From a virus: a DNA stretch of 64,000 bases. The DNA lies in the IMG/VR virus record IMGVR_UViG_3300025648_000015, positions 1 through 64,000 of that record, one strand, 5' to 3'. Position 1 is the first letter of the stretch. Each line of letters starts with the position of its first letter. Under the pieces are notes generated by a model. The model was not told the origin of the DNA. It saw nothing but the letters and a program-made list of their open reading frames with translations, and made no database searches. Below are positions 17,998-60,880 of the stretch, one piece after another. The translations under genes and the position numbers were made by a program.

Positions 17998-18264
17998 ATG
18001 AGCGACGAAATTAAGAACACAGTTAAGCCTAGTAACGTTGGTGCTGAGCCTGTTGGCGCAGTAATCCCAAGCGGTACAGTGCTCAGCGGTACAACAATCT
18101 ATAATGAACCATGGTTCAGTGTTTGGTTGCCACAGACATTCCCTGGAACTGTTACTGGTGGTGTAGCACAACCTACCTTGAGCGGTACTGGTTACCAAGG
18201 TGCAAACAATGTCGGTCTGGTATTCCAGAACGATCAATACAACACAACCGTGAGAGGATTCTAA
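17998..18264 (+). CDS. Small virion protein (putative)
   Basis: AAGGAG RBS; SG/TG-rich. Confidence 0.65.
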   Translation: MSDEIKNTVKPSNVGAEPVGAVIPSGTVLSGTTIYNEPWFSVWLPQTFPGTVTGGVAQPTLSGTGYQGANNVGLVFQNDQYNTTVRGF

Positions 18265-18265
18265 C

Positions 18266-18970
18266 ATGGCTATTACACCAAACACAGCAATAGAACAGGC
18301 TAATAAGCAGGCGCTACGTGGAGTAGCACGCGGTGGTTTTAATTCATACGCACCTTCTGCTATTGACCCTACTGTTTACGTAAATGCTGCTGCTACTACT
18401 AGTGGTATTCTTGAACTCGTAGTTCCTGCAACTGGTGCTACTACTTTCACAATCAGTGGCCCTAATGGAACTACTGCTACCCTTACTGGTACTGCTACTG
18501 GTACCCAGGTTAGCGGTTTGGTTTCTGCTCTTGCTGCTGGTCCACTTTCTGGTTACACATTTTATGTAAACGCCGGTGGTGCTAACTACATCAATGGTAC
18601 TACTACAACAATCATCGTTCCTTCCGGAGCTGCATTGCTTGTTGTATCTGGTACTGGTGGTGCTGTTCCTACCATTACTGCACTTGCATTCAGTGGTTCA
18701 AACGCTGAAGCTGTTACTTACCCTAACTATGTTGGTACTCCTAATTCTGCACCTACTTGGGTAGATGATGCTACTGTTCACGCTTACCAAGTTGGTATTG
18801 GTGGAGCACAGAACACACAAATCATTGAACAAAAGCAAGTTCGTCAGATTCTTACCGGTAACGGTCCTGATGGTGGTTCACAAACTGAACAATACAATGG
18901 TTACTTTGCTTCTTACAGCGGAAACCTTTACCAGACCGTACAGAAGAACACCAAGCGCCAGCAGTGCTAA
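18266..18970 (+). CDS. Gly/Thr/Ala-rich virion protein (putative)
   Basis: 234 aa; composition and position. Confidence 0.6.
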   Translation: MAITPNTAIEQANKQALRGVARGGFNSYAPSAIDPTVYVNAAATTSGILELVVPATGATTFTISGPNGTTATLTGTATGTQVSGLVSALAAGPLSGYTFYVNAGGANYINGTTTTIIVPSGAALLVVSGTGGAVPTITALAFSGSNAEAVTYPNYVGTPNSAPTWVDDATVHAYQVGIGGAQNTQIIEQKQVRQILTGNGPDGGSQTEQYNGYFASYSGNLYQTVQKNTKRQQC

Positions 18971-19120
18971 ATGGAACACGTACCTTTTAGAATAAAGGTA
19001 GATGCGGTTATAACTAGAGCGGATGGTGTCCAGGAAAACCTGGGCACCATTAGTTCTAATACGACAGAAAATAAAAATGATCACTCTACTGACGAACAAG
19101 ACCAGAAACAGTTTAGTTAA
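18971..19120 (+). CDS. 49-aa small protein not in the ORF track (MEHVPFRIKVDAVITRADGVQENLG...)
   Basis: ATG directly after the TAA at 18970, open to TAA at 19120; overlaps the next gene's start. Confidence 0.6.
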   Translation: MEHVPFRIKVDAVITRADGVQENLGTISSNTTENKNDHSTDEQDQKQFS

Positions 19121-19682
19121 TGCAATAACAGGCTCTGGGTACTCATTAGCCATTCCACAATTTATTGCATGGGGTACTGGGTCAGGAACCGTTCAAGCGA
19201 CCGATATAACCCTATTTAACCCCGTTCAGGTGCCTGTTAGTGGTACAGTAAGCACTCTTACAACGTCAACATCTGGCGACACATATCTTTGCAGTGCAAC
19301 ATTAACTGCAAGTGGACATTACAACATAACAAATATTGGTTTGTTTACCACTGGTGCAACACCTGCAATGGGTACATTAACAAGCCAAGTCAACCCTGGA
19401 GCAACCACTATACAAATAAGTGGTTACAATGCATTCCCAAACACTTTTCCATTCAACATACAGGTACTATCAGAAGTAATGACAGTAATTTCTGGAAATG
19501 GTACCAATACTTATAATGTAATTAGGGGCGTAAATGGCTCTAGTATGATGACAACGATAATTCCTTCTCTTACTACTGTAGTGGGTCAAGCTGGTTTTAT
19601 GTTTTTAAAAAGCAGTTTTCCAGGTATTGGTTTGCAGTACGGAGACAGCATCAAATTTAATATTAGCATTCAATTTATATAG
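19077..19682 (+). CDS. Virion structural protein (fibre-attachment/baseplate-like N-terminus)
   Basis: MITLLTN...IAWGTGSGT..ATDITL...ITNIGLF pattern typical of tail-fibre attachment domains. Confidence 0.6.
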   Translation: MITLLTNKTRNSLVNAITGSGYSLAIPQFIAWGTGSGTVQATDITLFNPVQVPVSGTVSTLTTSTSGDTYLCSATLTASGHYNITNIGLFTTGATPAMGTLTSQVNPGATTIQISGYNAFPNTFPFNIQVLSEVMTVISGNGTNTYNVIRGVNGSSMMTTIIPSLTTVVGQAGFMFLKSSFPGIGLQYGDSIKFNISIQFI

Positions 19683-19690
19683 GAGCAACT

Positions 19691-20230
19691 ATGGCTAGTT
19701 TTAACTCTAATTTTTATTTTCCTCAGGAAGGTCTTAACTACCTTTTGAACGCAATTCCAAGAGGAACACAGGCCGTTCCTTCTACACTTTATCTAGGTCT
19801 TACAGCCACTACTTGGTCAACCATTAGTGGATACGCTGCTGCAGGTGATGTTCCTCTTACCCTCAATGGTGGTACTTACCCAATTCTTGAAGCTAGTGGT
19901 CTCAGTGGTTATTCACGTCTAACTCTTTCTGGATCTGGTTGGCAAGCACCACAGACTAACACAATTACAATTGGTACAAGCACAGGAATTCCTGTACAAT
20001 ACTGTACTTACTCAGGAACTAACCCTCTTACATTCACAAACACTGGTGCTACATACACTACTATCAACGGTATCTTCCTTACCATCACTGGTACTGTAGG
20101 ATCAAGTAGCTCAGGCGGAAGTACAGTTCTATGGTACGCACCATTCTCTGATCTTTCAACCGTAACTCTAGCTTCAGGCGACTCACTAACTGTTACTCCT
20201 ACTTGGCAATCTGCTTCTTACCCATACTAA
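19691..20230 (+). CDS. Virion structural protein (tail-associated)
   Basis: EGLNYLL...LYLGL...GYSRLTL...VTLASGDSLTVT, a common phage structural family pattern; AGGAG RBS. Confidence 0.65.
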   Translation: MASFNSNFYFPQEGLNYLLNAIPRGTQAVPSTLYLGLTATTWSTISGYAAAGDVPLTLNGGTYPILEASGLSGYSRLTLSGSGWQAPQTNTITIGTSTGIPVQYCTYSGTNPLTFTNTGATYTTINGIFLTITGTVGSSSSGGSTVLWYAPFSDLSTVTLASGDSLTVTPTWQSASYPY

Positions 20231-20278
20231 TTAGTAATCAGTAACAGGTAGATAAACAATTAATAGGAGTATTATTTA

Positions 20279-23200
20279 ATGGCCCTCCCAGATTCCAGTG
20301 TAATACGATCATACCCTGGTGGTGCTGCACCTACGTATCTTTCAGCATCGCTTGACTATGCATTCGCAAGCGGACAAACAATAACTGTAGCTAATACCAC
20401 GGGATGGTATGAAGTTAGCGCAGGCGGATATAATACCACTAATCCACTAGGAACTAGTGGACCTTTTACGCTTGTTGTAGATTACGGTCTAGGCAGCGAA
20501 GAAAAGATACTGTGTGCTAGCGGTGCCATCTCACTTGGTGTTAATACCACTATTTTTGTTTATAACGTTAGTGGTACCAATGGCCGTGGCTATGACGGAA
20601 CAACTGCAACTTCGCACTCAGTAGGAACTTCTAGCGATTATAACGTATTCCCTGTTGCTACAGCTATTGAACAAGCTCAATTTAATCTTGCAGCAAGCAA
20701 ATTAGGCAATTCAACTTTAGTAGTATCAGGCACAACTGCTGGTGGAGATCTTGCTGGGACTTATCCTAATCCAACACTTAAAGCAATATACACTGGCGAC
20801 ACATTCTCTGGTGGTGGCGGAAGCTTCTTGCCAACATTTTCATGGGATAATGCTGGTCGTATAACTAATGTTTCAGGTATAAATATATTTATTCCAACAA
20901 GTGCAGTAAGTGGATTGAATACGACTATTAGTGGTTTACAGACCCAAATTAACACTAATGGTACAAACATTAGTACACAGAGTGGGCAAATAAATACATT
21001 ATTTGCAACAACTAGCGGTCAAGCTTCAAGCATAGCTACACAAAGTGGACAAATTAATTCATTGTTTATAACAACTAGTGGTAACTCTACAGACATTAAC
21101 AATCAAGCTGCAGCCATTAGCGGTTTAAATACACAAGTAAGCGATTTAAACAATTCTACTACCTCAGGATTTGCTAGTGTAAATACACAAATATCAGGAC
21201 TCAATGTAGTAGTTAGTGGTCAAGCCAATACTCTTGCTACTGAAGCAAACAACATTGCTGTCCTTAGTGGTCAATACGTAACTCTTTCAGGTAACTTAGT
21301 TACTACTAACTCTAATGTTGCCAACCTCAGTGGCCAATTCGCATCACTTTCTGGTTCATATAATACCACGTCAGGAATCGTAACTAACCAAACTGGATAC
21401 ATTGCCACACTTAGTGGTCAAATGATCACTGCTAATAACGGTATATCAACTAACGCTGCAAACCTTGCCACGTTATCTGGTCAATATACTACTACTAGTG
21501 GAATTGTTACCAACCACACTTCATACATTGCAACAATTTCTGGTAAACAAATTACTGATGAAAACAACATAGCAACACTTTCAGGAAACATTGTTACCAT
21601 TAGTGGAAAGCAAGTAACTGACGAAGCTAATATTGCTTCTCTTTCAGGGTCTCTTGTTACCCTAAGTGGTCAATTTGTAACTACTTCAGGAAGAACAATC
21701 TTCTCTGGCACTAATGCCGGTGGAGATTTAACTGGTACATACCCTAACCCAACTCTTAGAACAATTAGTGGTGTTAGTGGTACCTATGGATCTGCTACAC
21801 AAACTCCATTGCTTTCTATCGATTCAAATGGTCGTGTTACTAATGCACAACTTTACACAATCCAGATTGCTGAAAACCAAGTAAACAACCTAACAACAGA
21901 TATGACTAGCATATCTGGAAACATTGCTAGTGTATCTGGTAAACAAGCTACAGATGCTTCTAATATTGCATCGTTGTCAGGTAGTCTTGCTACTCTTTCA
22001 GGCCAGTATGTATCAACGAGTGGAATCGTCACTAATAACACTAGCTACATTGCTACCATATCGGGTAAGCAAATTACCGATGAGGCAAACATTGCATCAT
22101 TGAGTGGTTCTCTTGCAACGCTCAGTGGCCAATATGTTACCACTTCAGGTCTTGTTACAAATCAGGCTGGATACATATCTACAATATCTGGCAAACAGAT
22201 TGCTGATGAAGCTAATCTTGCCACACTATCTGGTCAATATGCTACAACTAGTGGCATTGTTACCAATAACACTGGTTATATTGCTACTATTTCAGGTAAG
22301 CAAGTCACCGACGAAGCTAATATTGCTTCATTGAGTGGCAGCCTTGCTACAGTTAGTGGAGTTGCTTATGCTGCCCTTCCTAGAACTGGTGGAACAATCA
22401 GTGGCAACCTTACAGTAACTGGAACACTAACTGCTGGTTCTTTAACTGTTAGTGGTGGTAATGTTCTAATTAGCGGTTCAACTGCCAATGGCGACCTTTC
22501 AGGCACCTATCCAGCCCCTACAGTGGCAAAGATCCAAGGAGTTGCTGTAAGCCCAACAACTCCAACTAATAACCAAGTTCTACGCTACAGCACTACATCT
22601 GGCACTTGGTATGCTGGTACGGGTAATGCTCTATTCCCAACTACTACTCAGAGTGGTAACTACACAGCAGTTCCCAATGATTATGTAGTATGTAATGCAA
22701 CTGCTGGTGCAATGACAGTCACTCTAACTAATGCTCCTGCAAACGGTTCAATAATTGCAGTTGCTAGCCAAGCTACAAGCACTTACAACGTTACTGTTGT
22801 AGCTAGCGGTAGCGACACGATTCCTGGTGGTTCTTTTGTCTTGGCAGGCAACGGAGTGTTTAACTCTGTTGAATTCTACTACGATGCTGGATTAGCTGAA
22901 TGGTTGATTGTAAGTAACCAATTCGGTGATGTTGCTGGTGGAGATCTTACCGGAACTTATCCTAACCCAACAGTTTCTTATCTTAATGGTGTCCCTGTAA
23001 GCCCTACACCTCCAAATACTGGTCAAGTTCTTGCATCAGTTGGTGGAGTGTGGACTCCAATCACGTCAAGTGGAATTGGAACACCTGGTCCTGGTGGAGC
23101 TAATGGTTACTATGGTGCCTTCTATGACACCACTAATCAAACTGCTACAAGCACTACAAGTGGAAACGTTCTAGCAATTGGTAGTACATTCTCTGCCAAT

Positions 23201-26200
23201 GGTATAACTAGATCGGCTAGTGGAACAATTACATTTGGTTATGCTGGTACTTATCTTATTGCTTATACAGTTCAACTAATTACATCTTCCAGTGCTTCTA
23301 GAAACGTAGATATTTGGTTCCGTAAAAATGGTGTTAATGTTCCAAATACGAATGCAACATTTGCAGTGCCAGCATCACCAACGCCAGGTGGCGGAAATGC
23401 TGTAACTGCTGCTGTAACACATATAATCGTTGCAAGTGGTAATGACAACTTCCAAATTATGTGGATGCCAACCAACACTGATACTACTGTTGAAACTATT
23501 GCCTCTGGCGCTAACTACCCAACTGCTCCTGGAGTATTTGTATCTGTTTCTCAAATCATGTACAACCAAACAGGTACATACACAGTTAACGCAGTCGCTG
23601 CTAGTGGTACTAATGCTACTACTGCAACTCCACTTACACTTAGTACATATGCTCCAATAACTGGTGCTACTGCTTCAGGTAACACAGCATCTGGTACAGG
23701 AGTTATTCTTCCTACGCCAACATATAACGGTCAATGGATGCAGATCCACAATGAAGACCTAACTCACTGGCTCCTTGTCTATCCACAACCAACAGCGTAT
23801 ATTGATAATGGTTCAACTGGTGCTCCTATTTGGTTACCACCAACTAGTTATTGGGAAGGTGTAGCTACAACTACCACTTCCTGGGATACTGCTATCCAAC
23901 CATTGACTAGTAACTCACTTGCTGTTAGTTACTTGGTTGTTCCTGGTCAAACAGACATTGAACTACAAACCTACGGTACTCCTGGTACATACGGTACTAC
24001 TAGTGGTATTCCAGTAATTACAACAGATACCTATGGTCGTTCGACTGTAACTGTAACTGGTGTACAAATTAACCAAAGTCAAGTAACTGGTCTTTCTGGA
24101 AACTTGTCAGCATTGAGTGGTTCAATAACTACAACCAGTAGCAACCTTGCAACGCTCAGTGGTCAATACGCCACAACATCAGGTATTGTTACAAACCAAA
24201 CTGGTTACATTGCAACCCTATCGGGTCAAATGGTTACTGCTAATAGTAACATTGCCTCTACAAGTGGATCGCTTGCAACCCTTTCTGGACAGTTTGTAGC
24301 CCTCTCAGGATCATACAGCACAACTAGTGGTAACCTAAATACTACTAATACCAATGTTGCTAATCTTAGTGGTCAATACGCCACTCTTAGTGGTCAATAT
24401 GCAGCTACTTCAGGAATTGTTACCAACCACACAAGTTACATTGCCGCTACTAGCGGTTCTCTTGCCACTCTTAGTGGTCAATTCGTAGCTCTTTCTGGTT
24501 CATATAATACCACTTCAGGAATTGTTACAAGCCAAACAAGTTATATTTCAACTTTGTCAGGACAAGTAGTAACACTTTCTGGTAGTGATGCTAACAAGCT
24601 TCCACTTAGCGGAGGAACCGTTACCGGTACTTTGAATGTTAATAGCCCATTCAATGTTAATGGAAACGTTAGCATTACTGGTACAGAAACTATTTCTGGT
24701 GCTCTAAACGTTAACTACACGATCAATGCTACAACGCCGACTAACAACCCACCAATCAACTTTGGTGGTGGACTAAGCTATTCTGATGTTAACACAATTG
24801 CTGGATTTAACACTAGCGTTAACAACTACAACCAGATTGTTCTACAAAATACTAACTCAGGTACTTCAGCTAGCACTAACTTAAACGTAAGTAACAACTT
24901 GGGAACAAGTGGTACTAACTATGGTGAGTTTGGTATGAACTCCAGTAATTTTACTGGTACTGGTGCGTTTAATACTGCAGGAGCAGTTTACCTTGCTTCA
25001 GCCTCTACAGACCTAGCTATCGGTACTTATGGTAACAATGCTATTCACTTTGTAACTAATAGTGCAACAGCTGATGCAATGACAATTACCAGTGGTGGGA
25101 ACGTCGTTGTCGGTAGTGGTTTGACTGTTAGTGGAACATTTACTCTTGCAACAGGTATCACTATATCAACTCCTATTGGTAACTATCCTATAGCAATTGG
25201 TTACCAAGCTGGTCAAACTGATAATGGTAATGGTGGTGTAGCAGTTGGTTACCAAGCTGGTCAAAGTAACAATAATTATGGTGTATCTTTAGGTTATCTT
25301 GCCGGACAAAATGGAAACAGCAAAGGTGTAGCAATTGGTGCTGCTGCTGGTCAAACAACTAACGCTTCAGGTATTGCAATTGGTTTCCAAGCTGCTGCAC
25401 TTGGTAACAACAATAGCATTGCAATTGGTTTTAATTCTCAAACTGGATCTAGTGGGTACGCAATAGCACTAGGTACTAGCAGCACAGCAAGTGCTTCAGG
25501 TTCTGTAGCAATTGGTATGAATGCAACTGCAACTGGAACAAACCAATTTGTTCTTGGTACATCAAACCATAACGTTCAAGTACCTGGTACCTTTGCTGTA
25601 AGTGGTTCTTTGACCGTAAGTGGTACTGCTGTAATGACCAGTGGTTCTGCAGTCGGTGGAGATCTTACTGGTACAATAGGTAATGCAAAAGTAACTAAGT
25701 TACAAGGTTACACAGTATCAAGCGGTGCACCTACTGCCAATGCAATGCTTGTTTACAGTGGTTCTCAATGGACCTCAGGTCCTGCTGTAAGCGGTACAAC
25801 TGGTACAGGTGGAATAATCCCTTACGCTACCAACCCATTGCTCGTAGCACCTCTAGAACAGGTTGTAGTTAGCTCTGGTGTAGTATCTTCAAGCGCTGCT
25901 GCTGTTCTCAACACCGTTTCTGGTGGAGTCTATGTCTACACTGCTGCTCCAACATCAGCATGGCAAATCCAAATAACCAATGCTCCAACTACTGTTGGTC
26001 AAGCCGTTACTGTCACTGTTGGTACAAATAATGGTTCTACAGCCTACCTCCCATCAGGGTTTACGATCAATGGTTACACTGTTAACGGTGGTACTACGCT
26101 ACCTGCCCATGGAACAGCATATACTAACACTTATACCGTGACAGCGTACTACCAAGGTGGTTCAATATGGACTGCTGCAGATGCAACAGTAAACTATGAT

Positions 26201-26272
26201 TTCTATGCTATTACATTAATATGTACAGCAGCTAATACGTATGTTATGCTACTCGGACAGACTAAGTTCTAA
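20279..26272 (+). CDS. Long trimeric fibre/adhesin (1997 aa)
   Basis: SG-containing heptad coiled coils; four GDLxGTYPxPT repeats plus one degenerate copy; BclA/C1q-like segment (YYGAFYDTT...GTYLIAYTVQL...IWFRKNG); YadA-head-like (V/I)A(I/V)G repeats near the C-terminus. Confidence 0.8.
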   Translation: MALPDSSVIRSYPGGAAPTYLSASLDYAFASGQTITVANTTGWYEVSAGGYNTTNPLGTSGPFTLVVDYGLGSEEKILCASGAISLGVNTTIFVYNVSGTNGRGYDGTTATSHSVGTSSDYNVFPVATAIEQAQFNLAASKLGNSTLVVSGTTAGGDLAGTYPNPTLKAIYTGDTFSGGGGSFLPTFSWDNAGRITNVSGINIFIPTSAVSGLNTTISGLQTQINTNGTNISTQSGQINTLFATTSGQASSIATQSGQINSLFITTSGNSTDINNQAAAISGLNTQVSDLNNSTTSGFASVNTQISGLNVVVSGQANTLATEANNIAVLSGQYVTLSGNLVTTNSNVANLSGQFASLSGSYNTTSGIVTNQTGYIATLSGQMITANNGISTNAANLATLSGQYTTTSGIVTNHTSYIATISGKQITDENNIATLSGNIVTISGKQVTDEANIASLSGSLVTLSGQFVTTSGRTIFSGTNAGGDLTGTYPNPTLRTISGVSGTYGSATQTPLLSIDSNGRVTNAQLYTIQIAENQVNNLTTDMTSISGNIASVSGKQATDASNIASLSGSLATLSGQYVSTSGIVTNNTSYIATISGKQITDEANIASLSGSLATLSGQYVTTSGLVTNQAGYISTISGKQIADEANLATLSGQYATTSGIVTNNTGYIATISGKQVTDEANIASLSGSLATVSGVAYAALPRTGGTISGNLTVTGTLTAGSLTVSGGNVLISGSTANGDLSGTYPAPTVAKIQGVAVSPTTPTNNQVLRYSTTSGTWYAGTGNALFPTTTQSGNYTAVPNDYVVCNATAGAMTVTLTNAPANGSIIAVASQATSTYNVTVVASGSDTIPGGSFVLAGNGVFNSVEFYYDAGLAEWLIVSNQFGDVAGGDLTGTYPNPTVSYLNGVPVSPTPPNTGQVLASVGGVWTPITSSGIGTPGPGGANGYYGAFYDTTNQTATSTTSGNVLAIGSTFSANGITRSASGTITFGYAGTYLIAYTVQLITSSSASRNVDIWFRKNGVNVPNTNATFAVPASPTPGGGNAVTAAVTHIIVASGNDNFQIMWMPTNTDTTVETIASGANYPTAPGVFVSVSQIMYNQTGTYTVNAVAASGTNATTATPLTLSTYAPITGATASGNTASGTGVILPTPTYNGQWMQIHNEDLTHWLLVYPQPTAYIDNGSTGAPIWLPPTSYWEGVATTTTSWDTAIQPLTSNSLAVSYLVVPGQTDIELQTYGTPGTYGTTSGIPVITTDTYGRSTVTVTGVQINQSQVTGLSGNLSALSGSITTTSSNLATLSGQYATTSGIVTNQTGYIATLSGQMVTANSNIASTSGSLATLSGQFVALSGSYSTTSGNLNTTNTNVANLSGQYATLSGQYAATSGIVTNHTSYIAATSGSLATLSGQFVALSGSYNTTSGIVTSQTSYISTLSGQVVTLSGSDANKLPLSGGTVTGTLNVNSPFNVNGNVSITGTETISGALNVNYTINATTPTNNPPINFGGGLSYSDVNTIAGFNTSVNNYNQIVLQNTNSGTSASTNLNVSNNLGTSGTNYGEFGMNSSNFTGTGAFNTAGAVYLASASTDLAIGTYGNNAIHFVTNSATADAMTITSGGNVVVGSGLTVSGTFTLATGITISTPIGNYPIAIGYQAGQTDNGNGGVAVGYQAGQSNNNYGVSLGYLAGQNGNSKGVAIGAAAGQTTNASGIAIGFQAAALGNNNSIAIGFNSQTGSSGYAIALGTSSTASASGSVAIGMNATATGTNQFVLGTSNHNVQVPGTFAVSGSLTVSGTAVMTSGSAVGGDLTGTIGNAKVTKLQGYTVSSGAPTANAMLVYSGSQWTSGPAVSGTTGTGGIIPYATNPLLVAPLEQVVVSSGVVSSSAAAVLNTVSGGVYVYTAAPTSAWQIQITNAPTTVGQAVTVTVGTNNGSTAYLPSGFTINGYTVNGGTTLPAHGTAYTNTYTVTAYYQGGSIWTAADATVNYDFYAITLICTAANTYVMLLGQTKF

Positions 26273-27918: not shown

Positions 27919-28239
27919 ATGAACGGACAACCAAAGCAAACGCCTTGGGAATTATATTTAGAAAATCTAAAGAATACTTCCGAAGAAACATCTGAACAAC
28001 GCCCAGCTAGACCATGGGATCTATTCAATAAAAAAATTGGTAGAGTAGAAGACGAATTAGCTAGTGAACGCCTTGCAATTTGCAAAGATTGTCCACGCAT
28101 TCGTAAGTCATCCATGCTATGTAAAGAATGTGGTTGCTTTATGCCTGGAAAAGTAAAATTACCTAATGCATTCTGTCCAATAGGTAAATGGCAAGCCGTT
28201 GAACAAGAACTAGAGGTTAATGAGGAAGACGAAGAGTAA
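27919..28239 (+). CDS. Cys-rich small protein (RxxxCxxC...CxxCGC...CPxxKW)
   Basis: RLAICKDC, CKECGCFM, CPIGKW; probable metal binder. Confidence 0.75.
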   Translation: MNGQPKQTPWELYLENLKNTSEETSEQRPARPWDLFNKKIGRVEDELASERLAICKDCPRIRKSSMLCKECGCFMPGKVKLPNAFCPIGKWQAVEQELEVNEEDEE

Positions 28240-29632: not shown

Positions 29633-29904
29633 TGTTTAAGAAAAACAAAATATATAATGAAAAGCGTCGTTGGAAAACAATGGTAATCCCTAAGAACGAT
29701 GAGAACCAAACAAGGTACCTTCGTTTTACGGAATCACGCACTGCAACAAGACTGTTCATAGAAAAAGACAAGAATTACAAATTTTATGTTGTCTCTAGAG
29801 GAACTAACCCAGGTAAAGTAAAAGTAGTCGGAATTGCAACAGACATAAAGAGTGCTATCACATTATCTAACCTTGAATTGGAAAAAATCAATAAAGGTGA
29901 ATAA
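29632..29904 (+). CDS. Basic hypothetical protein
   Basis: 90-aa ORF, TAATG-coupled on both sides. Confidence 0.6.
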   Translation: MFKKNKIYNEKRRWKTMVIPKNDENQTRYLRFTESRTATRLFIEKDKNYKFYVVSRGTNPGKVKVVGIATDIKSAITLSNLELEKINKGE

Positions 29905-36701: not shown

Positions 36702-36703
36702 CA

Positions 36704-52501: not shown

Positions 52502-53766
52502 GTGTTACAGGAAATCCATATGATAAAAAAATGGGCGTTATTAAAGTACGCCTTACATCACTTCCACAACTTCATCCTTTTAGCCTAGCAAACAATGCTG
52601 CACAAAATTATTATTGTCTAGCTTTAGACACAAAAGGTTTTCAAGTTGAAATCGATCTCCAAGCTATGCCACCAGGAGTTACACTTGCTCAATTACAACC
52701 TAACCAAGTTTGGTGGGTAGAAAAAAGAACAACATTATATAGGTTATATCTATACGGTGGCATATTTGATAGCACAAAAAATCAAGTAGTTAGTACAACA
52801 CCTCTACCGAGCAGTGCAGCAACAGGAGGAGTACCTGCAGGAACGCTTCTTGATTTTGCTGGCCCTGTTGCACCATCTGGGTATCTTCTATGTGATGGAT
52901 CTAGTTATTCTACAACTACATATAGTGGTCTATTCAATGCCATTAGTTATACATGGGGTGGAACTGGATCTAGTTTTAACGTACCTGATCTTAGAGGTCG
53001 TACAACGATTGGTGCAGGCAGTGGTACAGGGCTTACCCTTAGAGCTTTAGCTACTTATAGCGGTGAAGAAACTCACGTATTGGTATCTGGAGAAACTCCT
53101 TTAGTAGCTCACTCCCATGGATTCTCAGTGCCTGCACAAACAGGCCTTACAACTAGTACAGGAACTAGCAATACTGTCAGTTTGAATACAGCCGGTGGAT
53201 CTACTGGTTCAGGATCTACAGGAACTGGTACTACCAATTCAACTACTACTGTGGCAGGTAGTGCTAGTATTAGTTCTGGTACTACAGGAACCGGTACTGC
53301 TAATATTAGTGCTAGTACAAGTGTAAGTATAACAGATCCTGGTCACACACATAGTGCTGGATCTTATGCTTTTATGGTATACAACACTACTGGTGGTGGA
53401 AACCTTTATGGTACCGGAACCCCTAGTAACCACTTTGGTACTGCTAACCCAACTCAATCTGCAACAACAGGTATTACTTCTAGTGCTACTACTTCTGGTA
53501 GTGACTCTGGTCACACTCACAGTCTATCTGGTGTTAGTGTTAGCATCCCTTCACTCACCGTTAATGGTGCTACTATACCTGCACTTTCGATTCCATCTCT
53601 TTCTATTGCTTCTCAAGCAGTTACCGGTAGCGTATCTATTCCTGGTCTTGCTTTTACAGTGCCTGCCCAAACGGGGCTTACAACCAGCGGAAACACCGCT
53701 ACAACAGCTTCTGGCCACAATAATATGCAGCCATATGCCGTAGTTACCAAGATCATCAAGTATTGA
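52498..53766 (+). CDS. Spike-position protein with phage tail-collar domain
   Basis: VPAGTLLDFAG..APSGYLLCDG...LF..I...WG....FNVPDLRGR; HxH motifs; HNNMQPYAVVTKIIKY terminus. Confidence 0.8.
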   Translation: MSVTGNPYDKKMGVIKVRLTSLPQLHPFSLANNAAQNYYCLALDTKGFQVEIDLQAMPPGVTLAQLQPNQVWWVEKRTTLYRLYLYGGIFDSTKNQVVSTTPLPSSAATGGVPAGTLLDFAGPVAPSGYLLCDGSSYSTTTYSGLFNAISYTWGGTGSSFNVPDLRGRTTIGAGSGTGLTLRALATYSGEETHVLVSGETPLVAHSHGFSVPAQTGLTTSTGTSNTVSLNTAGGSTGSGSTGTGTTNSTTTVAGSASISSGTTGTGTANISASTSVSITDPGHTHSAGSYAFMVYNTTGGGNLYGTGTPSNHFGTANPTQSATTGITSSATTSGSDSGHTHSLSGVSVSIPSLTVNGATIPALSIPSLSIASQAVTGSVSIPGLAFTVPAQTGLTTSGNTATTASGHNNMQPYAVVTKIIKY

Positions 53767-53798
53767 TGTATAAAAAGCCCTATTTTGCCTAAGATACT

Positions 53799-54251
53799 AT
53801 GAAGACTATAACAGTTAGCAACGGTGATATTAAACTTAGTACAGGAAAAATACAGTTTTCCACAGGTAATGCTAAGTTAGTACAAGACATATCTTTATGG
53901 CTAAAAGAACCCATTGGCACTGGATTCACCACGCCTAACTTTGGTAGCCTATTGCCACAATTGGTTGGTGGGACACAATCTGCATCAACCATTAGTACAG
54001 TAACAAACGAAATCATTCGCGTATTACAACTATACCAGGGTCAACAAGCATTATATCTACAACAAGCACAAAATACAGCACAGCTTGCCAACTGGAATAA
54101 AAGTGAAATTATACAAAACATTGTATCGGTAAATGTATCGATACAGAATACAACAATATTTGCCGCTATTGCTTTAAACACTTTGAATAACAATACGGTA
54201 AATCTTAATCTGACGATCAATAGCAACGGAGTGAATATAACTAATGGCTGA
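53799..54251 (+). CDS. Baseplate wedge protein (gp25/W-like)
   Basis: KLVQDI...L.EPIG....PNFGSLL. Confidence 0.75.
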   Translation: MKTITVSNGDIKLSTGKIQFSTGNAKLVQDISLWLKEPIGTGFTTPNFGSLLPQLVGGTQSASTISTVTNEIIRVLQLYQGQQALYLQQAQNTAQLANWNKSEIIQNIVSVNVSIQNTTIFAAIALNTLNNNTVNLNLTINSNGVNITNG

Positions 54252-56712
54252 TACCTCAGGAGTTCTCGCTAGGCTACAAGCCGCCCTTTCAGTATACGAC
54301 CCCACCTGGGACGTCAGCGTTGGTACAGCCACGTATAAAATCCTAGAATCTGTTGCAAAAGAAATTGCTCTTGCTAACAATAACTCTGTTCTTCAAACAT
54401 ATAGTTATGATGTTAACACAAAGAATGGTATTGAATTAGATACATTTTGTAACTTGTTTGGTGTTTATCGCCAATTTGGTAAAAGAGCTTCTGGGCTTGC
54501 AACTTTTTCTGTTAATACTCCATCAACTAACATTATTGATATCCCACTAGGTACACAAATTGCTGTACCAATTGGCACTAATTATACGTCTGCAATTTAC
54601 TACGCAACTTCTGCACCAGCAATTATTGGCGTTGGTAGCACATCCGTTGACGTTCCAATCATTGCAACACTACCTGGAGCTTATGGCAATGTACCAACTG
54701 GTGCAATTACTACAAAAGTTAGTTCACTTGTTGGTATTACATCAGTAGTTAACAATAGTGCAATAACTGGTGGTCTTGACCCAGAAAGTGATGCTTCTTT
54801 ACGAGCTAGATGGCAAAGCACAGCTTTTAACAACAACATTGGTACACAAGGTAAGTATATTCTTACTGCTCTTCAAGATCCAAACGTAACTCTTGCTAAC
54901 ACAGTTAGTCAACAGACTTTCTATAGCGAACAACTACAAATTAATTCATCAATCAGTGGAACAGGCAATGCATTTACCATGCTGCTTGTAGCTTATTCTG
55001 GTATGACTAGCGTAATTAGTGGTACTACTTTTAGTGGGACCACAGTCGTTGCAAGCAGTGGATTTACCGGTTCAGTTACTGGTAGTGCGTTAGCTTCTGG
55101 AATAACTGCAATGATCAGTGGTGTTGCACCAAACTATCAAATTGTTGCATCACCTAACTCAAATACTAATACAGTCAATGGAACAGGTGTTTTAATTAAT
55201 TATAGCGCAGGTTTACCATATCGTATAATGATTGGTAGCGGTACTTCTATCCCAGGTGCAAGCGTTACTACCAGTGGCGTTACCACTGTAAGTGGTGTTA
55301 GTTACTATAGTTATATTCAAAGTGCAAACCCTGACATTGGTACTAGCGGTACATTGTCATATAATGGTACTTTTGGTGGATATGTCTACCCGCAGGGTAA
55401 TGAATTAATTGGTTCAAACCTTAATACGCCTTCACAAATAGTATACGCAAACAACACTGATTATTACTATCCTACAAACCCAACTGCCCCTCTAGTAGTA
55501 ACTATTGCAAACAATGCCAACCAAACTGCACTATTTGCTGGCAACCAAATACAATTAATTTCAGAATATTGCCCAGCATCAAGTAGGTCTATAACACTTG
55601 CTAGTGGTAATTTTATTGATATCTTTATTAATGGTACGTCAGCTTCTTCAGCAACTGAACAAGTTGTTTTTAATCCATCATTTACTTTAAGTTCAGGCAA
55701 CGCGATTGCTAGTCTAAACACTGTTAACTACACATTGGCTAGTGGTGCTGTAGCAACTACAAACTCAACAATTGCTAATGATATTTATATCCCATTAAAC
55801 CAACAACCTGTTATCAACTTCCCATCTCAGTTGTCTACATCAACTAGTGGAATAGCAGACAATATTTATCTTTACAATGTTGGCACAAGTAGTGGTACTA
55901 CTTACCCAATTGCTTTAAATAAATATCCATGGGTAACGTTTACAGGTACGGTTGTATCAGGAGCAACTACGAATGGAACAACATTTATTCCAGTAACAAA
56001 TGCCAATGGTCTATCACAGTTATACCCAGGTTTAGCACTCGCTAATAGTGCAATTGCATCAGGATCTGGTTACTATATTACACAAGTAACATCCAGTGGT
56101 GTTTATGTAAATCAAAATATTACTGCACCATCAGGTACTGCAACTACAGCAGCAATTAGCGGTAAAACTTTAGTTTACCCAATTTATGACACAACAGACA
56201 ATAAAAATAGTGTACTACAAACAACTGGCCTTGCATTTGATGTAACAACGCCACCAAGTGGTTGGCCTGCATTGCCAACACTTATGTCATGGTTGAAATA
56301 CAACCATAATTATAATAGCGATGTAGTTTCTGTAGAAACGTTGGTACAACAAAGTAGACCATTAGGAACAAACACTCTTGTTCACCAAGCAAACTATATC
56401 AACCTGGTTCTTAACCTTAGAATTGTGTTCTCATCTGGGTTTACTCCAACTTCAGTTGAAACAAATATTGCTAATAACCTTGCTACTTATTTTAGTAGTT
56501 TTTATTATCTTGGAAGTATTTCTTTCTCGACTCTTGCAGCTCAAATCCTATCAGTGCCAGGGGTATCAAACGTTAAAGTAACAAGTATTAATACTGTTGC
56601 TTTAGATGGAACAATACTCACTACACAATCTAGTGATTTTAACCTTGCAAGCAACCAATTACCATTGCTTAACGCAATTAACTTTACAGTTAAGGGAAAT
56701 AGTAATTTCTAA
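54244..56712 (+). CDS. Baseplate J-like wedge protein
   Basis: G.ELD.F..LFG..R, A..PG..GNV..G.IT, GG.DPESDASLRAR, VPGVSNV. Confidence 0.9.
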   Translation: MADTSGVLARLQAALSVYDPTWDVSVGTATYKILESVAKEIALANNNSVLQTYSYDVNTKNGIELDTFCNLFGVYRQFGKRASGLATFSVNTPSTNIIDIPLGTQIAVPIGTNYTSAIYYATSAPAIIGVGSTSVDVPIIATLPGAYGNVPTGAITTKVSSLVGITSVVNNSAITGGLDPESDASLRARWQSTAFNNNIGTQGKYILTALQDPNVTLANTVSQQTFYSEQLQINSSISGTGNAFTMLLVAYSGMTSVISGTTFSGTTVVASSGFTGSVTGSALASGITAMISGVAPNYQIVASPNSNTNTVNGTGVLINYSAGLPYRIMIGSGTSIPGASVTTSGVTTVSGVSYYSYIQSANPDIGTSGTLSYNGTFGGYVYPQGNELIGSNLNTPSQIVYANNTDYYYPTNPTAPLVVTIANNANQTALFAGNQIQLISEYCPASSRSITLASGNFIDIFINGTSASSATEQVVFNPSFTLSSGNAIASLNTVNYTLASGAVATTNSTIANDIYIPLNQQPVINFPSQLSTSTSGIADNIYLYNVGTSSGTTYPIALNKYPWVTFTGTVVSGATTNGTTFIPVTNANGLSQLYPGLALANSAIASGSGYYITQVTSSGVYVNQNITAPSGTATTAAISGKTLVYPIYDTTDNKNSVLQTTGLAFDVTTPPSGWPALPTLMSWLKYNHNYNSDVVSVETLVQQSRPLGTNTLVHQANYINLVLNLRIVFSSGFTPTSVETNIANNLATYFSSFYYLGSISFSTLAAQILSVPGVSNVKVTSINTVALDGTILTTQSSDFNLASNQLPLLNAINFTVKGNSNF

Positions 56713-57668
56713 TGGCTGGTAATCTTTTCCCCACTGCTTTGCACTCTACCTTTATACAAAAGGTAAGTAATTTTCCAGATGATATTTATGATTTTAATAG
56801 TGGTGATGACCTCACCACGTTAATGAATATTTTGCTTGGCAACAGTGGTACTGGACAACTTAACAACCTACAGCTTGCTGCAAGGCTTGGTCAGCAAAAT
56901 ATAGAATTTAATAATTTAGATACAATACTTGGATTAATTCTTAATGTAAAAAGAACTGCTCCTGAAATCTATAGTTTTGCTACAAATCCTTTTATTGATC
57001 AATTGACTGATGCTCAATGGCAAGAAATCAGTACAAAAGATGCAAGTTATCGTGAAAGACTTATGGGAGCTGCAGAAGCTTTTCAAATAGGTTCAACGCT
57101 GTGGGGCGTTCTCACTATGTGTGAAGCATTAACACAAACAAAGTTTTATGTTGTAGAAAGTTGGAGAACACCCGGTTATGGAAGATCGGGCGTTAACCCA
57201 GCCCAAGAAATAGTTCTTATTCCTTTAATGGATTCTACTAACAATAGTGGTTTCTTTACTTGGGATCAAAGCAAAGTTAATACAATTTTGAATACTATAA
57301 AGTATTTTACATTTAATAATTTTGTAATTAGCTTTGGTTCGCCTATTAATACACTTACTCAAATTTCTGGAAACTACGTAGCAACTAACGGTGGTTATTC
57401 AGAATACTTTCATTTGCAAACATCTGTGAATGCAAACGGTTTGAACTCACCTGGAAATATACAACCAGGTGCTAACACAAGATATTGGGTAAAGAATAAT
57501 ACAAGCAGCGTAGCTCCACATTTTGCTCACTTGCAAACACAAGAAATAATTATTGACTTAACAGGGAATATTAATTTTGTTAGCAGTACTGATCCAACTG
57601 GTTTCCCAGAAAACAGCGTTGCTCTTCCTTCTATCCAAGTTACATCAACAGTCTATGGTGCACAATAA
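56712..57668 (+). CDS. Baseplate wedge protein (I-like)
   Basis: LD.ILG...R, D.SYRERL; follows the J-like gene. Confidence 0.65.
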   Translation: MAGNLFPTALHSTFIQKVSNFPDDIYDFNSGDDLTTLMNILLGNSGTGQLNNLQLAARLGQQNIEFNNLDTILGLILNVKRTAPEIYSFATNPFIDQLTDAQWQEISTKDASYRERLMGAAEAFQIGSTLWGVLTMCEALTQTKFYVVESWRTPGYGRSGVNPAQEIVLIPLMDSTNNSGFFTWDQSKVNTILNTIKYFTFNNFVISFGSPINTLTQISGNYVATNGGYSEYFHLQTSVNANGLNSPGNIQPGANTRYWVKNNTSSVAPHFAHLQTQEIIIDLTGNINFVSSTDPTGFPENSVALPSIQVTSTVYGAQ

Positions 57669-60600
57669 TGCCAATTTTACCAAACAATACAGACCCCTCA
57701 AAAGAATACGTAACGCAATCGGTTAATCCGCCTTTAACTATTGACGGTGTTGTCTATAATAAAATTTATTCACACACTGGTGTAATTGATACTTTATCAA
57801 ATATTCAAAGCACTGGATATTCAGATCCCAATGTAAACATTTTTAATCAATCAAATAGTATTATTAGTTTTGATCCACAACTACAAAAATCATGGATCTC
57901 AAGTACTGATTTTGGTGGACCTACAAGTAATCCTGTAGTAATTACTTACGATATTGTAAATACTACTTATTACAACAATATTGTTTTTGATGTGCTTAAC
58001 GTACCTTGTTTTGTTGAGATACTAGACGAGAATGATAATCCATTGCCCGGTTCCTCAACATTCTCAATTGCCGGTGGTGGAGACATTTACACAACTACTA
58101 ATTGGTTGCGTTTAGAATACAATGCACCAACTAACCCAACACCAGCTACAGTATCAGGTACAAATGGAACAAGTAATTTTACTTATCCATTAACTGGTGT
58201 AAGCGAAATATCTATTCGCATTACAAGGAATAAAACTGTTCAATCTAACTCGGGTAATGGAAATACTTTAACAAATATTGCTTATTCAGTAGGTGTACAA
58301 AACTTTAGTATCAAATTAATTGTTAAAAATAATTCTGATATTCCTGCCGCGGTTGTTAGTGGTTCTAATTCTATTATTACACAAAATCGTTTTAATTTTG
58401 TAGAAACATATTCTTATTCAGTTAATAGTGTTTCTAATATGTTTGTTAATGATTCAACATATTGGAAATGTGCTCCACAACCTGTAAAAGACTCAATCGT
58501 ATATTTTTATATGAAAGTTAGCGATCCAACGCCAAAAACAATTAATAGACTATACATTGATCCATTGTACAGTGGTTGCAAATTTAATGTCTATTACACT
58601 ATTCAATCAACAATTAGTGGTACAGTAGATCCAAGCACTTTCTCTTGGACGCCTATTCAAAGAGATTTTTCTTTAAGAAAAGGTTTATACGATTTACCAA
58701 CCGTAAGCTGCACGTATTTAAAAATTGAATTTATAAAACTTATACCAGAAGTATATGACCTGCCATTGGATTCAATTAATAAAACTATTAATGTTTTTCC
58801 TTATGATGTTGAAAATTACTTCTCTCAACTAGAAGCAAATATTATTGACGGTAATGCAGTAAAATATGCAATTACTAACCCAGGTGCTATTGGTGTTTCA
58901 ACTATCTTAAACCAACAGATTAGTAACTCAACTATCCTGGGTAATGCAACTGCAAATATTGGTAATAATTCTACTTTTCCAAGTCTTGCAAATCTTAACT
59001 CAACACAGATTAATAATCCTACTACACAATCTATAAATACAAGTTCATATATCATTGACCCAAGTATTAGTTACAAACTATTAGATTCTAATGGTAATTA
59101 TAACTATAGTTCATATAATGAATTCCTTCAAAGAAGATTTCCAGACAATCGTGTCCATGTTTATAATCAAGTAAACATTAATCAAACTTGGCACCAAGCC
59201 TACTTTACTGGTATTAGATACATTACTTCATTTTTTGAAAATAATTTTGATGATCTACGTGGAACACCACAAAATTTTATTTCAAGCAATGGATCAAACA
59301 CAGGATTCTCTAGCCAAGGTGTTGATTACATTAACCTTAATGTTGACGAAATTGCAGTAACACCATGGTTCTCTACCATTGATAGTTTTAACGCATTTAA
59401 TATTGGTGGTTTAACTACTGACTGGCAAAGTTTTTTAACTCAAGGCAATACAATTAGCAATGATAATACATTGATGAATAACATTAGTGCTGCAACTTTA
59501 AGCACCATGCTCATTAATGCTAGCGGTACAAAAATAGGTACGCTTGGTACAAGTACTATTTATGCAATATCTGGTCAACCTAATACTCAATATGGTATCC
59601 AATCAGCAGCGTATTCTTTTGGCAATAATATTCTTAATTACTACAACGCTAATTTCCTACCATACTCTGGATCAATTTTAAATTGGTCAGGTCTTGGTGG
59701 TACTACAATAACTGGTACATCTGTAAATTATTATAATCCATCAACGGGTCTTAGTGGCACTGCTAGCGGACTAAGTGTTAGCGGTGGGAACTATACAGCA
59801 GCATTTAACTTTACTATACCAAACGTCAATGCAAGTGGTATCCAAACTTGGCAATTGCAATTTGGTGCACCATCGTTTGGTGTAGTTGGTTATGCAAGCT
59901 ATACACAAGCCGGTGGGTTTAATTACTACTTTTTAACCAATGTCCAAGCTTCTGGTTCTACTAATATTAGTCTAAAAACTAGATTTATTAATCCAACAAC
60001 TAATAATGTAATCTCTGGAACTACTGTGAGTGGTAGTACAGTTGCTGTAACTTCTGGATTTAATATAGCTACTGTTACTGGAACTAATTATAGCACTTCA
60101 ATACCATCAAATACAATTCAATTAGTGATTAGTGGTAGCGCAAGCGTACCATATTCACTATATCAATTAGGTGTTTTCACTCAACCAACTAATAAATGGA
60201 TTGGGCCATCCGACCATAGCAATATGAGAGTTAGTGGAACAGTACGTGTACTATTGCCAAAAAATAATGCAGGAACTTATAGAGCAAGTCTTATTGGCAC
60301 TGATGTATTAGGTAACTTATCTGAACTAGCTTATAAAATTTATACACCAGGAACTATGCCAATAAATACTTGGTTCGATGTAGAACTAGAAGGATTTACC
60401 GGTAGCAATTACGTATCATTCGTAATGGTTATAAGGCAGATTGTACCAACAATTAACGAAATTTTTTATGTAAGTATGCTTGCACCATTCTATCACCCAG
60501 TGCGTTATGAATTTACTAATACACAAAACAACAATATTACTGGAAAAACAGGTTGGTATCCAATCACTCTTGGTGTAAATGATGCAAATAGTTTTATAAG

Positions 60601-60880
60601 TACTGCATCTGGATTACCAGCCAGTGGAATACAAATACGTATGACAGCTCTAGACCCTAATGTTTATGTAACTGGAGTAAGTATTATTCCACAATATAAA
60701 CAAAACTCATATTACTCTAATCTTGATATAAATTACATTGGAGTGAGTAAAACCAATGAAATTAGTTCACGACGTAGTATTAGTAGTAAACCTTATTTTC
60801 AGTTGAATTCTGAATATCATCCAGCTATTTTTAATATAAATAGGATCTCAAGCAATGTAAATCTTTACAACGTAGATTGA
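57668..60880 (+). CDS. Large peripheral baseplate protein with beta-sandwich domains
   Basis: 1070 aa; TYWKCAPQP...INRLYIDP...YLKIEF (discoidin-like pattern). Confidence 0.6.
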   Translation: MPILPNNTDPSKEYVTQSVNPPLTIDGVVYNKIYSHTGVIDTLSNIQSTGYSDPNVNIFNQSNSIISFDPQLQKSWISSTDFGGPTSNPVVITYDIVNTTYYNNIVFDVLNVPCFVEILDENDNPLPGSSTFSIAGGGDIYTTTNWLRLEYNAPTNPTPATVSGTNGTSNFTYPLTGVSEISIRITRNKTVQSNSGNGNTLTNIAYSVGVQNFSIKLIVKNNSDIPAAVVSGSNSIITQNRFNFVETYSYSVNSVSNMFVNDSTYWKCAPQPVKDSIVYFYMKVSDPTPKTINRLYIDPLYSGCKFNVYYTIQSTISGTVDPSTFSWTPIQRDFSLRKGLYDLPTVSCTYLKIEFIKLIPEVYDLPLDSINKTINVFPYDVENYFSQLEANIIDGNAVKYAITNPGAIGVSTILNQQISNSTILGNATANIGNNSTFPSLANLNSTQINNPTTQSINTSSYIIDPSISYKLLDSNGNYNYSSYNEFLQRRFPDNRVHVYNQVNINQTWHQAYFTGIRYITSFFENNFDDLRGTPQNFISSNGSNTGFSSQGVDYINLNVDEIAVTPWFSTIDSFNAFNIGGLTTDWQSFLTQGNTISNDNTLMNNISAATLSTMLINASGTKIGTLGTSTIYAISGQPNTQYGIQSAAYSFGNNILNYYNANFLPYSGSILNWSGLGGTTITGTSVNYYNPSTGLSGTASGLSVSGGNYTAAFNFTIPNVNASGIQTWQLQFGAPSFGVVGYASYTQAGGFNYYFLTNVQASGSTNISLKTRFINPTTNNVISGTTVSGSTVAVTSGFNIATVTGTNYSTSIPSNTIQLVISGSASVPYSLYQLGVFTQPTNKWIGPSDHSNMRVSGTVRVLLPKNNAGTYRASLIGTDVLGNLSELAYKIYTPGTMPINTWFDVELEGFTGSNYVSFVMVIRQIVPTINEIFYVSMLAPFYHPVRYEFTNTQNNNITGKTGWYPITLGVNDANSFISTASGLPASGIQIRMTALDPNVYVTGVSIIPQYKQNSYYSNLDINYIGVSKTNEISSRRSISSKPYFQLNSEYHPAIFNINRISSNVNLYNVD

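Follow-up and report, generated by a model that had tools for sequence, protein, structure and literature searches.

Why does a single dipeptide, Ser-Gly (SG), recur so densely in unrelated proteins of one phage particle? The question is raised by a 64,000-nucleotide stretch of viral DNA (hereafter, the window), which is the first 64 kb of the 116,145-bp IMG/VR viral contig IMGVR_UViG_3300025648_000015 (estimated completeness, 79%). The contig derives from an uncultured lake phage with a GC content of 40%, whose morphology, as read from its genes, is that of a myovirus. An earlier note, made from the sequence alone, claimed that the external structural proteins encoded between positions 17998 and 60880 are saturated with SG, and interpreted the dipeptide as a possible modification sequon. 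Our analysis showed that SG is in excess over composition in these proteins, that the excess depends on the order of the two residues, and that it co-varies across genomes, including those of an independent lineage, with a pair of genes for a GT2-like and a GT4 glycosyltransferase (GT). From these comparisons we suggest, with evenly balanced confidence, that SG serves as an O-glycosylation tag, specific for Ser, which the GT2-like/GT4 module reads and whose glycan is elaborated differently from lineage to lineage, possibly with sulfation in this phage.

Over-representation of Ser-Gly in the outer virion proteins

Observed dipeptide counts were compared, protein by protein, with the counts expected from composition; open reading frames (ORFs) were called crudely, by length. 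SG was found at 2.1-3.5 times the expected frequency in about 11 unrelated outer virion proteins. When the proteins listed in the earlier note were pooled, there were 253 SG against 97.5 expected (2.6-fold), and after the long tail fibre was removed there were still 150 against 67.7 (2.1-2.2-fold, z = 10), a deviation that no other dipeptide equalled. In the fibre-removed pool, the reversed dipeptide GS (1.05) and the related dipeptides TG (1.06), AG (0.94) and NG (1.0) remained close to expectation, while DG was under-represented in the SG-rich proteins (0.6-0.7). Run per protein, the comparison again gave high SG and values of about 1 for GS, TG and AG, and composition thus does not explain the SG frequency. 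The claimed saturation was borne out, and the remaining 131 ORFs had SG at 1.05. In a test by shuffling, which covered all 116 proteins with a length of 100 amino acids (aa) or more, 11 had p < 0.01, ten of which are encoded in the structural block at 18-61 kb. A few of the proteins listed in the earlier note were not individually significant, namely those starting at 8628 (p = 0.11), 43829 (p = 0.12) and 52498 (p = 0.05).

The serine codons within SG were 50% AGY and 50% TCN. Because both codon families are used, the bias acts on the protein and not on a DNA word. Other pairs of a T-ending codon with a glycine codon (NNT-GGN, encoding TG, AG, NG and DG) were not enriched, which together with the AGY/TCN split rules out a codon word or DNA motif as the cause. 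A shared domain spread among the SG-rich proteins was also ruled out, as an all-against-all BLAST search found no similarity among them. The preceding residue followed the claimed form, (T/A/V/I/L)SG, at 90 of the 103 sites in the fibre and at 61% of the sites outside the fibre, compared with a background of 41%.

Comparison with other phages and within the clade

The observed/expected ratios of SG and GS were 1.09 and 1.11 in the virion proteins of T4, 1.06 and 1.06 in those of Cali, 1.05 and 1.20 in those of Myrna, 1.23 and 1.02 in those of Che8, and 1.38 and 1.29 in 132 distant representatives of the baseplate J protein. These values rule out the SG excess as a general property of phage tail proteins, although some distant baseplate J homologues (P0019, P0020, P0022 and P0062) are SG-rich.

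We then compared the Ser-rich proteins of four genomes that carry the GT4 gene (GT4-plus) with those of three syntenic contigs that lack it (GT4-minus). Of the latter, G002 has terminal repeats and is complete; the identity between its capsid protein and that of this phage is 90%. The SG and GS ratios were 2.53 and 1.05 (G000), 2.00 and 0.78 (G006), 1.92 and 0.93 (G007), and 1.60 and 1.04 (G008) in the GT4-plus genomes, against 1.30 and 1.31 (G002), 1.20 and 1.19 (G001), and 1.01 and 1.08 (G003) in the GT4-minus contigs. When the largest SG contributor was dropped from each genome, the difference between SG and GS still gave p values of 2e-5 to 3e-3 in the GT4-plus genomes and of 0.5-0.9 in the GT4-minus contigs. 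Since SG and GS are about equal in T4, Cali, Myrna and the syntenic relatives, neither the folds as such nor a Ser-rich composition at low GC accounts for the excess. A lone GT2-family gene was observed within the structural module of G002 (C1:34520-34924, minus strand, locus L098; a 421-aa ORF), a genome without SG asymmetry.

Alignments between the two groups also differed in the residue before a conserved glycine, where serine in the GT4-plus protein opposite threonine in the GT4-minus protein was found 48 times and the reverse 19 times, compared with 322 and 308 elsewhere (with pseudo-replication of all counts across genome pairs). Taking all lineages together, including that described below, nine of ten genomes or contigs bearing the GT pair were asymmetric and none of eight without it (Mann-Whitney p = 7e-4, not corrected for phylogeny and representing about two to three independent lineages). 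As the SG excess was seen only in phages with the GT2-like/GT4 pair, the motif probably marks the sites at which the phage puts a coat of sugars on its own virion.

The glycosyltransferase operon

The statement of the earlier note that no glycosyltransferase is visible in the window was literally true; three GT-like genes begin 99 bp beyond its end. A search of the rest of the genome, as the note had proposed, identified them as a GT2-like/GT4/GT17-like operon at genome positions 64099-66826. The GT2-like gene (64099-64794) scored 17.5 bits in Pfam, below the cut-off of 23.3, and its product has conserved IPxxN and NDD motifs. The GT4 gene (64779-66065; PF00534, 41.4 bits, cut-off 26.4) and the GT17-like gene (66062-66826; PF04724, 67.7 bits, cut-off 26) were above their cut-offs. 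The three genes overlap and are apparently translationally coupled.

In the relatives, the GT4 protein (63-83% identity) and the GT2-like protein (48-79%) are both always present, with conservation at least equal to that of the tail proteins. The genes that follow GT4 vary: one relative has GT25-like and GT10 fucosyltransferase-like genes (L030:11284-12923), and another has two 2-oxoglutarate (2OG)-Fe(II) oxygenase genes and a sulfotransferase gene directly after GT4 (L042:11274-13834). Judged by its gene content, this region looks like a hypervariable glycan-tailoring island.

The best match of the GT4 protein in the PDB was the chlorovirus glycosyltransferase B736L (E = 4e-4), while PDB sequence searches with the GT2-like protein, the GT17-like protein and a GT2-like profile gave nothing significant. 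A tblastn search of 50,697 phage records with the GT4 and GT17-like proteins found no mycobacteriophage match at E ≤ 1e-3; the closest cultured match of GT4 was Tetrasphaera phage TJE1 (38.5% identity).

A second lineage with the same gene pair

A profile search with GT4 found five further contigs of 28-41 kb (G010-G014). These are siphovirus-like, with terminase, head morphogenesis, protease, capsid and tape-measure genes in order, and they share the GT2-like/GT4 pair (35-41% and 45-53% identity, respectively), located just upstream of the terminase gene. BLAST comparison of their GT4-flanking loci with this phage found nothing else in common save one weak fibre match. In their pooled Ser-rich proteins, 185 SG were counted against 94 expected, with 103 GS. 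The excess was found in four of the five contigs, for example G010 (55 against 25, p = 0.001) and G013 (52 against 27, p = 0.007). The strongest SG excess in this lineage (27 against 7.6, with 8 GS) was observed in an 889-aa Ser/Thr-rich protein of G010, encoded between the head-morphogenesis and protease genes (L161:16093-18762, minus strand).

In phage TJE1, the GT4 gene adjoins sugar-nucleotide genes and the terminase gene. Synechococcus phage S-CBS4, whose GT4 is 30% identical, had no significant SG asymmetry, a result that is uninformative at such a distance.

Sequence context of the motif

The context of SG is common to both lineages, with Thr at position -2 (2.4-2.8-fold), Ala, Ile or Val at -1 and Thr at +2. 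Asp and Glu together made up 2-4% of the residues from -3 to +3, compared with a background of 7%. The SG sites of the GT4-minus relatives had no such Thr/aliphatic/Thr context. The word T[AVIL]SG exceeded shuffled sequences 5-8-fold in the four GT4-plus myovirus genomes with the fibre removed and 4-14-fold in the second lineage (small counts), compared with 0.9-1.6-fold in the GT4-minus relatives. Its mirror image reached 0-4-fold, and about 1-2-fold wherever counts exceeded 2.

Ser-Gly-bearing proteins and their structural setting

The tail fibre (20279-26272, plus strand; 1997 aa) has 103 SG against 29.8 expected, with 29 GS, in heptad and 14-residue repeats. As the earlier note had claimed, the sites are spaced at heptad intervals, with 29 intervals of 7 residues and 19 of 14 residues between SG sites. 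The heptads are canonical, with Ile, Leu, Met or Tyr at position a, Leu, Ile, Ala or Thr at d, Ser at e and Gly at f, and SG is invariant among homologues of 40-44% identity. Gln is the commonest following residue (20 of 103 sites). In an AlphaFold2 (AF2) model of fibre residues 196-480, one continuous helix of about 130 residues was predicted (model residues 12-139), with a predicted local distance difference test score (pLDDT) of 76-92 over the first approximately 100 residues and low confidence beyond. Further along, at residues of about 1640-1760 (window positions of about 25200-25560), the coiled-coil stalks are followed by a left-handed beta-roll of AIGxxAGQ units like the YadA head, with a weak YadA_head match, so that the layout of the fibre resembles a trimeric autotransporter adhesin.

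The baseplate J (wedge) protein (54244-56712, plus strand; 822 aa; PF04865, E = 1e-24) has 26 SG against 8.4 expected, with 7 GS, and 23 of these sites fall in its variable middle region (residues 237-680), where 5.8 SG are expected and 5 GS occur. In its AF2 model (pLDDT 85.8), 17 of the 26 sites lie in loops, mostly directly flanking strands. Orthologues of 57-69% identity have 23-31 SG against about 9 expected, and serine was retained at 0.71 for SG compared with 0.49 for other serines. Similar results were obtained for the 1070-aa baseplate/minor tail protein (57668-60880, plus strand; phrog_2840, minor tail protein), which has 21 SG against 9.0 expected, with 8 GS; its orthologues have 15-28 against 8-10 expected, with a serine retention of 0.68 for SG compared with 0.43 for other serines. 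In the orthologue alignments of these two proteins, approximately 40-50% of the SG columns are singletons, indicating that SG sites also turn over. Orthologues on more than 30 contigs showed the same pattern.

The tail sheath protein (41775-43322, plus strand; phrog_2839) has 10 SG against 4.3 expected, with 4 GS, and 8 of the 10 lie within the first 190 residues. Just upstream, a 220-aa protein (41047-41709, plus strand) has 5 SG against 1.6 expected. The earlier note had described an apparent SG insert in this protein, which it took for a tail terminator. The SG-bearing loop was confirmed, with AASGG opposite a gap in the GT4-minus orthologues. Elsewhere in the same alignment, WSG and TASGT of the GT4-plus proteins stand opposite YTG/HTG and TITG/TLTG, respectively.

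Downstream of the capsid gene, three small Ser/Thr/Gly-rich virion proteins on the plus strand, at 18266-18970 (8 SG against 1.9), 19023-19682 (7 against 2.2) and 19691-20230 (8 against 2.7), had shuffle p values of 0.0005 to 0.0035 and no PHROG match. The other SG-rich proteins are a 248-aa protein (35955-36701, plus strand; 10 against 3.6, shuffle p = 0.0005), an FN3-domain protein of 761 aa (36674-38959, plus strand; fn3 E = 1e-9; 22 against 13.4, p = 0.009), and a baseplate protein of 318 aa, whose gene lies between those for baseplate J and the 1070-aa protein (56712-57668, plus strand; 5 against 2.0, with 2 GS, p = 0.036).

As far as secondary structure is concerned, the sites are thus placed at helix positions e and f in the fibre, mainly in loops in baseplate J, and mainly in the N-terminal 190 residues of the sheath. 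The occurrence of the same tag on a predicted coiled-coil helix surface and in strand-flanking loops fits poorly with a single structural role.

The tailoring cassette and the gene map

The presence of sulfotransferase and adenosine 5'-phosphosulfate (APS) kinase genes, pointed out in the earlier note, was confirmed. They belong to a cassette at 29.9-32.9 kb, all on the plus strand, which encodes a carbohydrate-type sulfotransferase (29904-30608; PF03567, weak, 23.8 bits), an Asp/Asn beta-hydroxylase-like cupin (30609-31184; Pfam/NCBIfam), a HemK/PrmC-like protein Gln N5-methyltransferase (31195-31890; TIGR03534, E = 6e-16), a 2OG-Fe(II) oxygenase (31901-32482; Pfam/NCBIfam), and a truncated APS kinase of 139 aa (32482-32901). 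The APS kinase covers profile positions 4-91 of 152, which is the P-loop half, and may be inactive or in need of a partner. The cassette has no homologues in the GT4-minus relative G002. At its head are two adjacent paralogues (28239-28919 and 28919-29632; 49% identity over 210 aa) without a Pfam or NCBIfam match. Ser-Gly-Gln, very frequent in the fibre heptads, resembles the Gly-Gly-Gln target of PrmC, and by this analogy it is possible that the HemK/PrmC-like enzyme methylates fibre Gln. Directly after the fibre gene, a 375-aa protein (26298-27425) has a (PPFF)9 repeat with Cys/Tyr/Gly-rich arms on either side and a basic KRKRR stretch; neither Pfam nor PHROG gave a match for it, and its SG count is not raised (4 against 4.3).

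The remaining landmarks of the structural module are the portal (9580-11961), major capsid (16197-17228), tail-tube (43335-43811) and tail-collar (52498-53766) genes. Cali and other Mycobacterium phages of cluster C share the gene order, and their portal proteins are 40% identical to that of this phage. A megablast search of the phage collection with the structural block found no match. The relatives are metagenome contigs with a GC content of 37-47%. An Rpf-type transglycosylase gene (62870-63262) lies upstream of a gene for a WhiB-family regulator (genome 63617-64102), and the latter overlaps the beginning of the glycosyltransferase operon. Since the two genes are hallmarks of actinobacteria, they point to a host from that group for this phage of 40% GC.

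Possible function of the motif and alternative explanations

If the motif is a glycosylation tag, the acceptor would be Thr-(Ala/Ile/Val/Leu)-Ser-Gly-(Thr/Ser) on assembled or assembling outer virion proteins, namely the fibre, the baseplate, the periphery of the sheath and the small decoration-like proteins, and the enzymes would be the cytoplasmic GT2-like/GT4 pair of the phage (genome 64099-66065). The first sugar would then be extended or decorated by variable enzymes, which here may be the GT17-like enzyme and the sulfotransferase with the APS kinase, and in the relatives the GT25-like and GT10 fucosyltransferase-like enzymes. The outcome would be a glycan coat on the tail, with the fibre as a bottle-brush carrying one site per 7 or 14 residues. 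In this scheme, the modification of serine, the enzyme that starts the chain, the identity of the sugar and its sulfation are what we infer from the pattern.

Several observations weigh against the glycosylation tag. The GT4-plus myoviruses form one clade, with the GT4-minus contigs outside it according to marker identities, so that they provide a single evolutionary contrast and the signal rests on about two to three independent lineages. At alignable conserved-glycine positions the net gain of serine was nil (118 against 113); most of the excess is thus in variable domains and lineage-specific proteins, where a change of composition or architecture is harder to exclude. Contig G014 (25% complete) has the GT pair without SG asymmetry, and TJE1 is weakly asymmetric (47 against 28, p = 0.04). 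The controls carry other glycosyltransferases, one GT2 gene in G002 and three genes in Cali, and the glycosylated phages Che8 and Myrna show no SG excess. The GT4 protein itself matches generic GT4 C-terminal domains only, far below all equivalog cut-offs, and it could transfer its sugar to a cell-wall polymer or to a lipid. Finally, the GT cassette is as near to the replication module as to the tail module, and an SNF2 helicase gene separates it from the baseplate genes.

Some of these points would equally suit an explanation that we regard as unlikely, though it is the main rival, namely that SG stays unmodified and has a structural or biophysical role in outer domains specific to the lineage, with the GT pair acting elsewhere, on host wall glycopolymers or lipids, and the shared ancestry being coincidental. 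SG could then form a strand-Ser-Gly-strand turn or bulge, or a hydrophilic, uncharged and deamidation-proof helix surface. The strand-adjacent loops that hold most of the baseplate J sites are a normal place for a Ser-Gly turn, and the low frequency of DG is in keeping with this explanation, as are the finding that most of the excess falls outside the positions to which GT4-minus orthologues can be aligned, in variable regions and clade-specific proteins, and the lack of a specific match of GT4 to a protein glycosyltransferase. With a single GT4-plus clade, one historical coincidence could explain the myovirus contrast. However, the same dipeptide with the same flanks is enriched both in a predicted alpha-helical coiled coil and in beta-loops, the orthologues of close relatives are equally rich in Ser, Thr and Gly without the asymmetry, and at conserved turns the GT4-plus proteins prefer Ser where the relatives have the near-equivalent Thr. 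Moreover, an unrelated lineage with nothing but the GT pair in common shows the association and the context again, and T4, Cali, Myrna and the distant baseplate J homologues have no such bias.

SG might instead mark a different modification by the cassette at 29.9-32.9 kb. The serine might be O-sulfated directly, the 2OG oxygenases might hydroxylate a residue next to it, or the HemK-like enzyme might methylate Gln at N5 in the SGQ heptads of the fibre. Three protein-modifying enzyme families are indeed encoded inside the structural block, the cassette is absent from the GT4-minus G002, and Gln is the most frequent residue after SG in the fibre. We consider this improbable, as the Gln is specific to the fibre, with Thr or Ser next elsewhere, and the members of PF03567, to which the match is weak, are carbohydrate sulfotransferases. 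The genes found in common with the second lineage were the GT pair and the weak fibre match, the cassette itself not having been searched for there. The cassette is also mobile, and its position directly after GT4 in L042 is a better fit to glycan tailoring. It is very improbable that repeats within proteins, regional composition or the calling of genes produced the excess as an artefact. Duplication of heptad units largely accounts for the 103 fibre sites, Ser and Gly cluster in the same regions, which slightly inflates whole-protein expectations, and the ORF calling was crude. Nevertheless, SG remained the top-ranked dipeptide with the fibre removed; regional concentration would raise GS too, yet GS stayed at about 1.0, and within the middle region of baseplate J SG was again in excess (23 against 5.8) and GS was not (5); and the pattern recurs in mutually dissimilar proteins and in their orthologues from many contigs. 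As for glycosylation of DNA by these glycosyltransferases, no thymidylate-synthase-like hydroxymethylase was found in the 79%-complete genome, and the fucosyl- and sulfotransferase neighbours argue against it.

Relation to known glycosylation systems

Among bacterial enzymes, GtfA/GtfB of the accessory Sec adhesins and SdgA/SdgB of the staphylococcal Ser-Asp repeats are GT4 protein O-GlcNAc transferases that act on Ser-rich repeats. The likeness lies in the GT4 family, the cytoplasmic location, serine in a dipeptide-like repeat, and long surface fibres. The motifs differ, being Ser-Gly with aliphatic and Thr flanks here and Ser-Asp or Ser-Ala in the SdgA/SdgB/GtfA types. The GT4 of this phage scored 18.1 bits against TIGR02918 (cut-off 574.6) and 16.7 bits against NF047880 (cut-off 800), matching in the generic C-terminal domain, and MshA, BshA and glycogen synthase scored equal to or above the GtfA and SdgA families.

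In eukaryotic proteoglycans, xylosylation of Ser-Gly is followed by the synthesis of sulfated glycosaminoglycans, and acidic residues flank the consensus of the xylosyltransferase. Similarities to the present case are the Ser-specific Ser-Gly acceptor and the combination, in one genome, of a carbohydrate-type sulfotransferase with a kinase that supplies 3'-phosphoadenosine 5'-phosphosulfate. The glycosaminoglycan analogy drawn in the earlier note nevertheless fails on the flanks, which are depleted of acidic residues here and rich in aliphatic residues and Thr, and the enzymes would be cytoplasmic and not Golgi-resident. No GT14 xylosyltransferase or UDP-xylose synthase was among the Pfam matches of the scanned proteins, although no dedicated search was made and the genome is incomplete. 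The parallel is confined to the dipeptide and to the occurrence of sulfation genes.

Virion glycosylation encoded by the phage has been reported for Che8, Corndog and Myrna (Freeman et al. 2023, as cited in PMC12363180 and PMC11256854). The system proposed here is similar in its actinobacteriophage context, in the use of the phage's own glycosyltransferases and in having phage structural proteins as the proposed target. As the GT4 of this phage has no detectable mycobacteriophage homologue and neither Che8 nor Myrna has an SG excess, membership of that system by homology fails, and the known actinophage mechanism, which the earlier note had cited as a precedent, is not simply carried over. The candidate sites also differ, numbering hundreds here and lying on the fibre, baseplate and sheath and not on the capsid or the tail tube. 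In Che8, the capsid protein (L048, 5051-5872) and the major tail/tail-tube protein (7613-8422) end in Gly-Ser (...NKTGS and ...YSDGS), in place of internal SG, and these ends may bear on where Che8 is glycosylated.

A useful mechanistic analogue is the Ser-only heptosylation of the TibC type. TibC is a cytoplasmic heptosyltransferase that modifies Ser and not Thr, and one site in TibA, Ser-313, lies in N-S-G-G between beta-strand-like segments, while the other mapped site, Ser-322, precedes Ala (PMC4358343). Like the enzymes proposed here, TibC and AAH are soluble cytoplasmic enzymes that hyper-glycosylate many serines of a repetitive fibrous adhesin, TibA and AIDA-I, respectively (PMC4358343). 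Unlike the enzymes of this phage, the bacterial autotransporter heptosyltransferases (BAHTs) are dodecameric iron-finger enzymes outside GT4, and their substrate is a beta-helix rather than a coiled coil and globular baseplate proteins. No BAHT-type gene turned up in this phage, although no search was aimed at one. In the literature consulted, which did not include the site data of Freeman et al. 2023, we found no description of a phage SG sequon or of a site-predicting tag.

In the interpretation of SG as a modification sequon, what stands is a motif that is ordered, set at the amino-acid level, placed in the outer proteins, conserved in the clade and co-varying with the GT pair; the parallel with glycosaminoglycans fails on the flanking residues, and the known mycobacteriophage system serves as a precedent for how this one may work.

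Implications

Virion glycosylation is so far known from a few mycobacteriophages. In a broader form, which we put forward tentatively from the distribution of the genes and the motif, a mobile two-gene module of a GT2-like and a GT4 protein would read Thr-aliphatic-Ser-Gly, and unrelated aquatic phages would use it to cover tails, baseplates and fibres alike in O-glycans by the hundred, diversified by fucosyl-, GT17-, GT25-type and sulfotransferases. If the motif is a true acceptor tag, these phages would in effect make a glycocalyx of their own, with a sequon that can be read from the genes, and both the glycosylated virion proteins and their sites could be read directly from metagenomic sequence. 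The GT2-like/GT4 pair would then be a portable tool for site-directed protein O-glycosylation in bacteria. For the abundant freshwater actinobacterial phages, glycan coats on the tail and fibre would matter for adsorption, host range, particle stability, and loss to grazers and debris.

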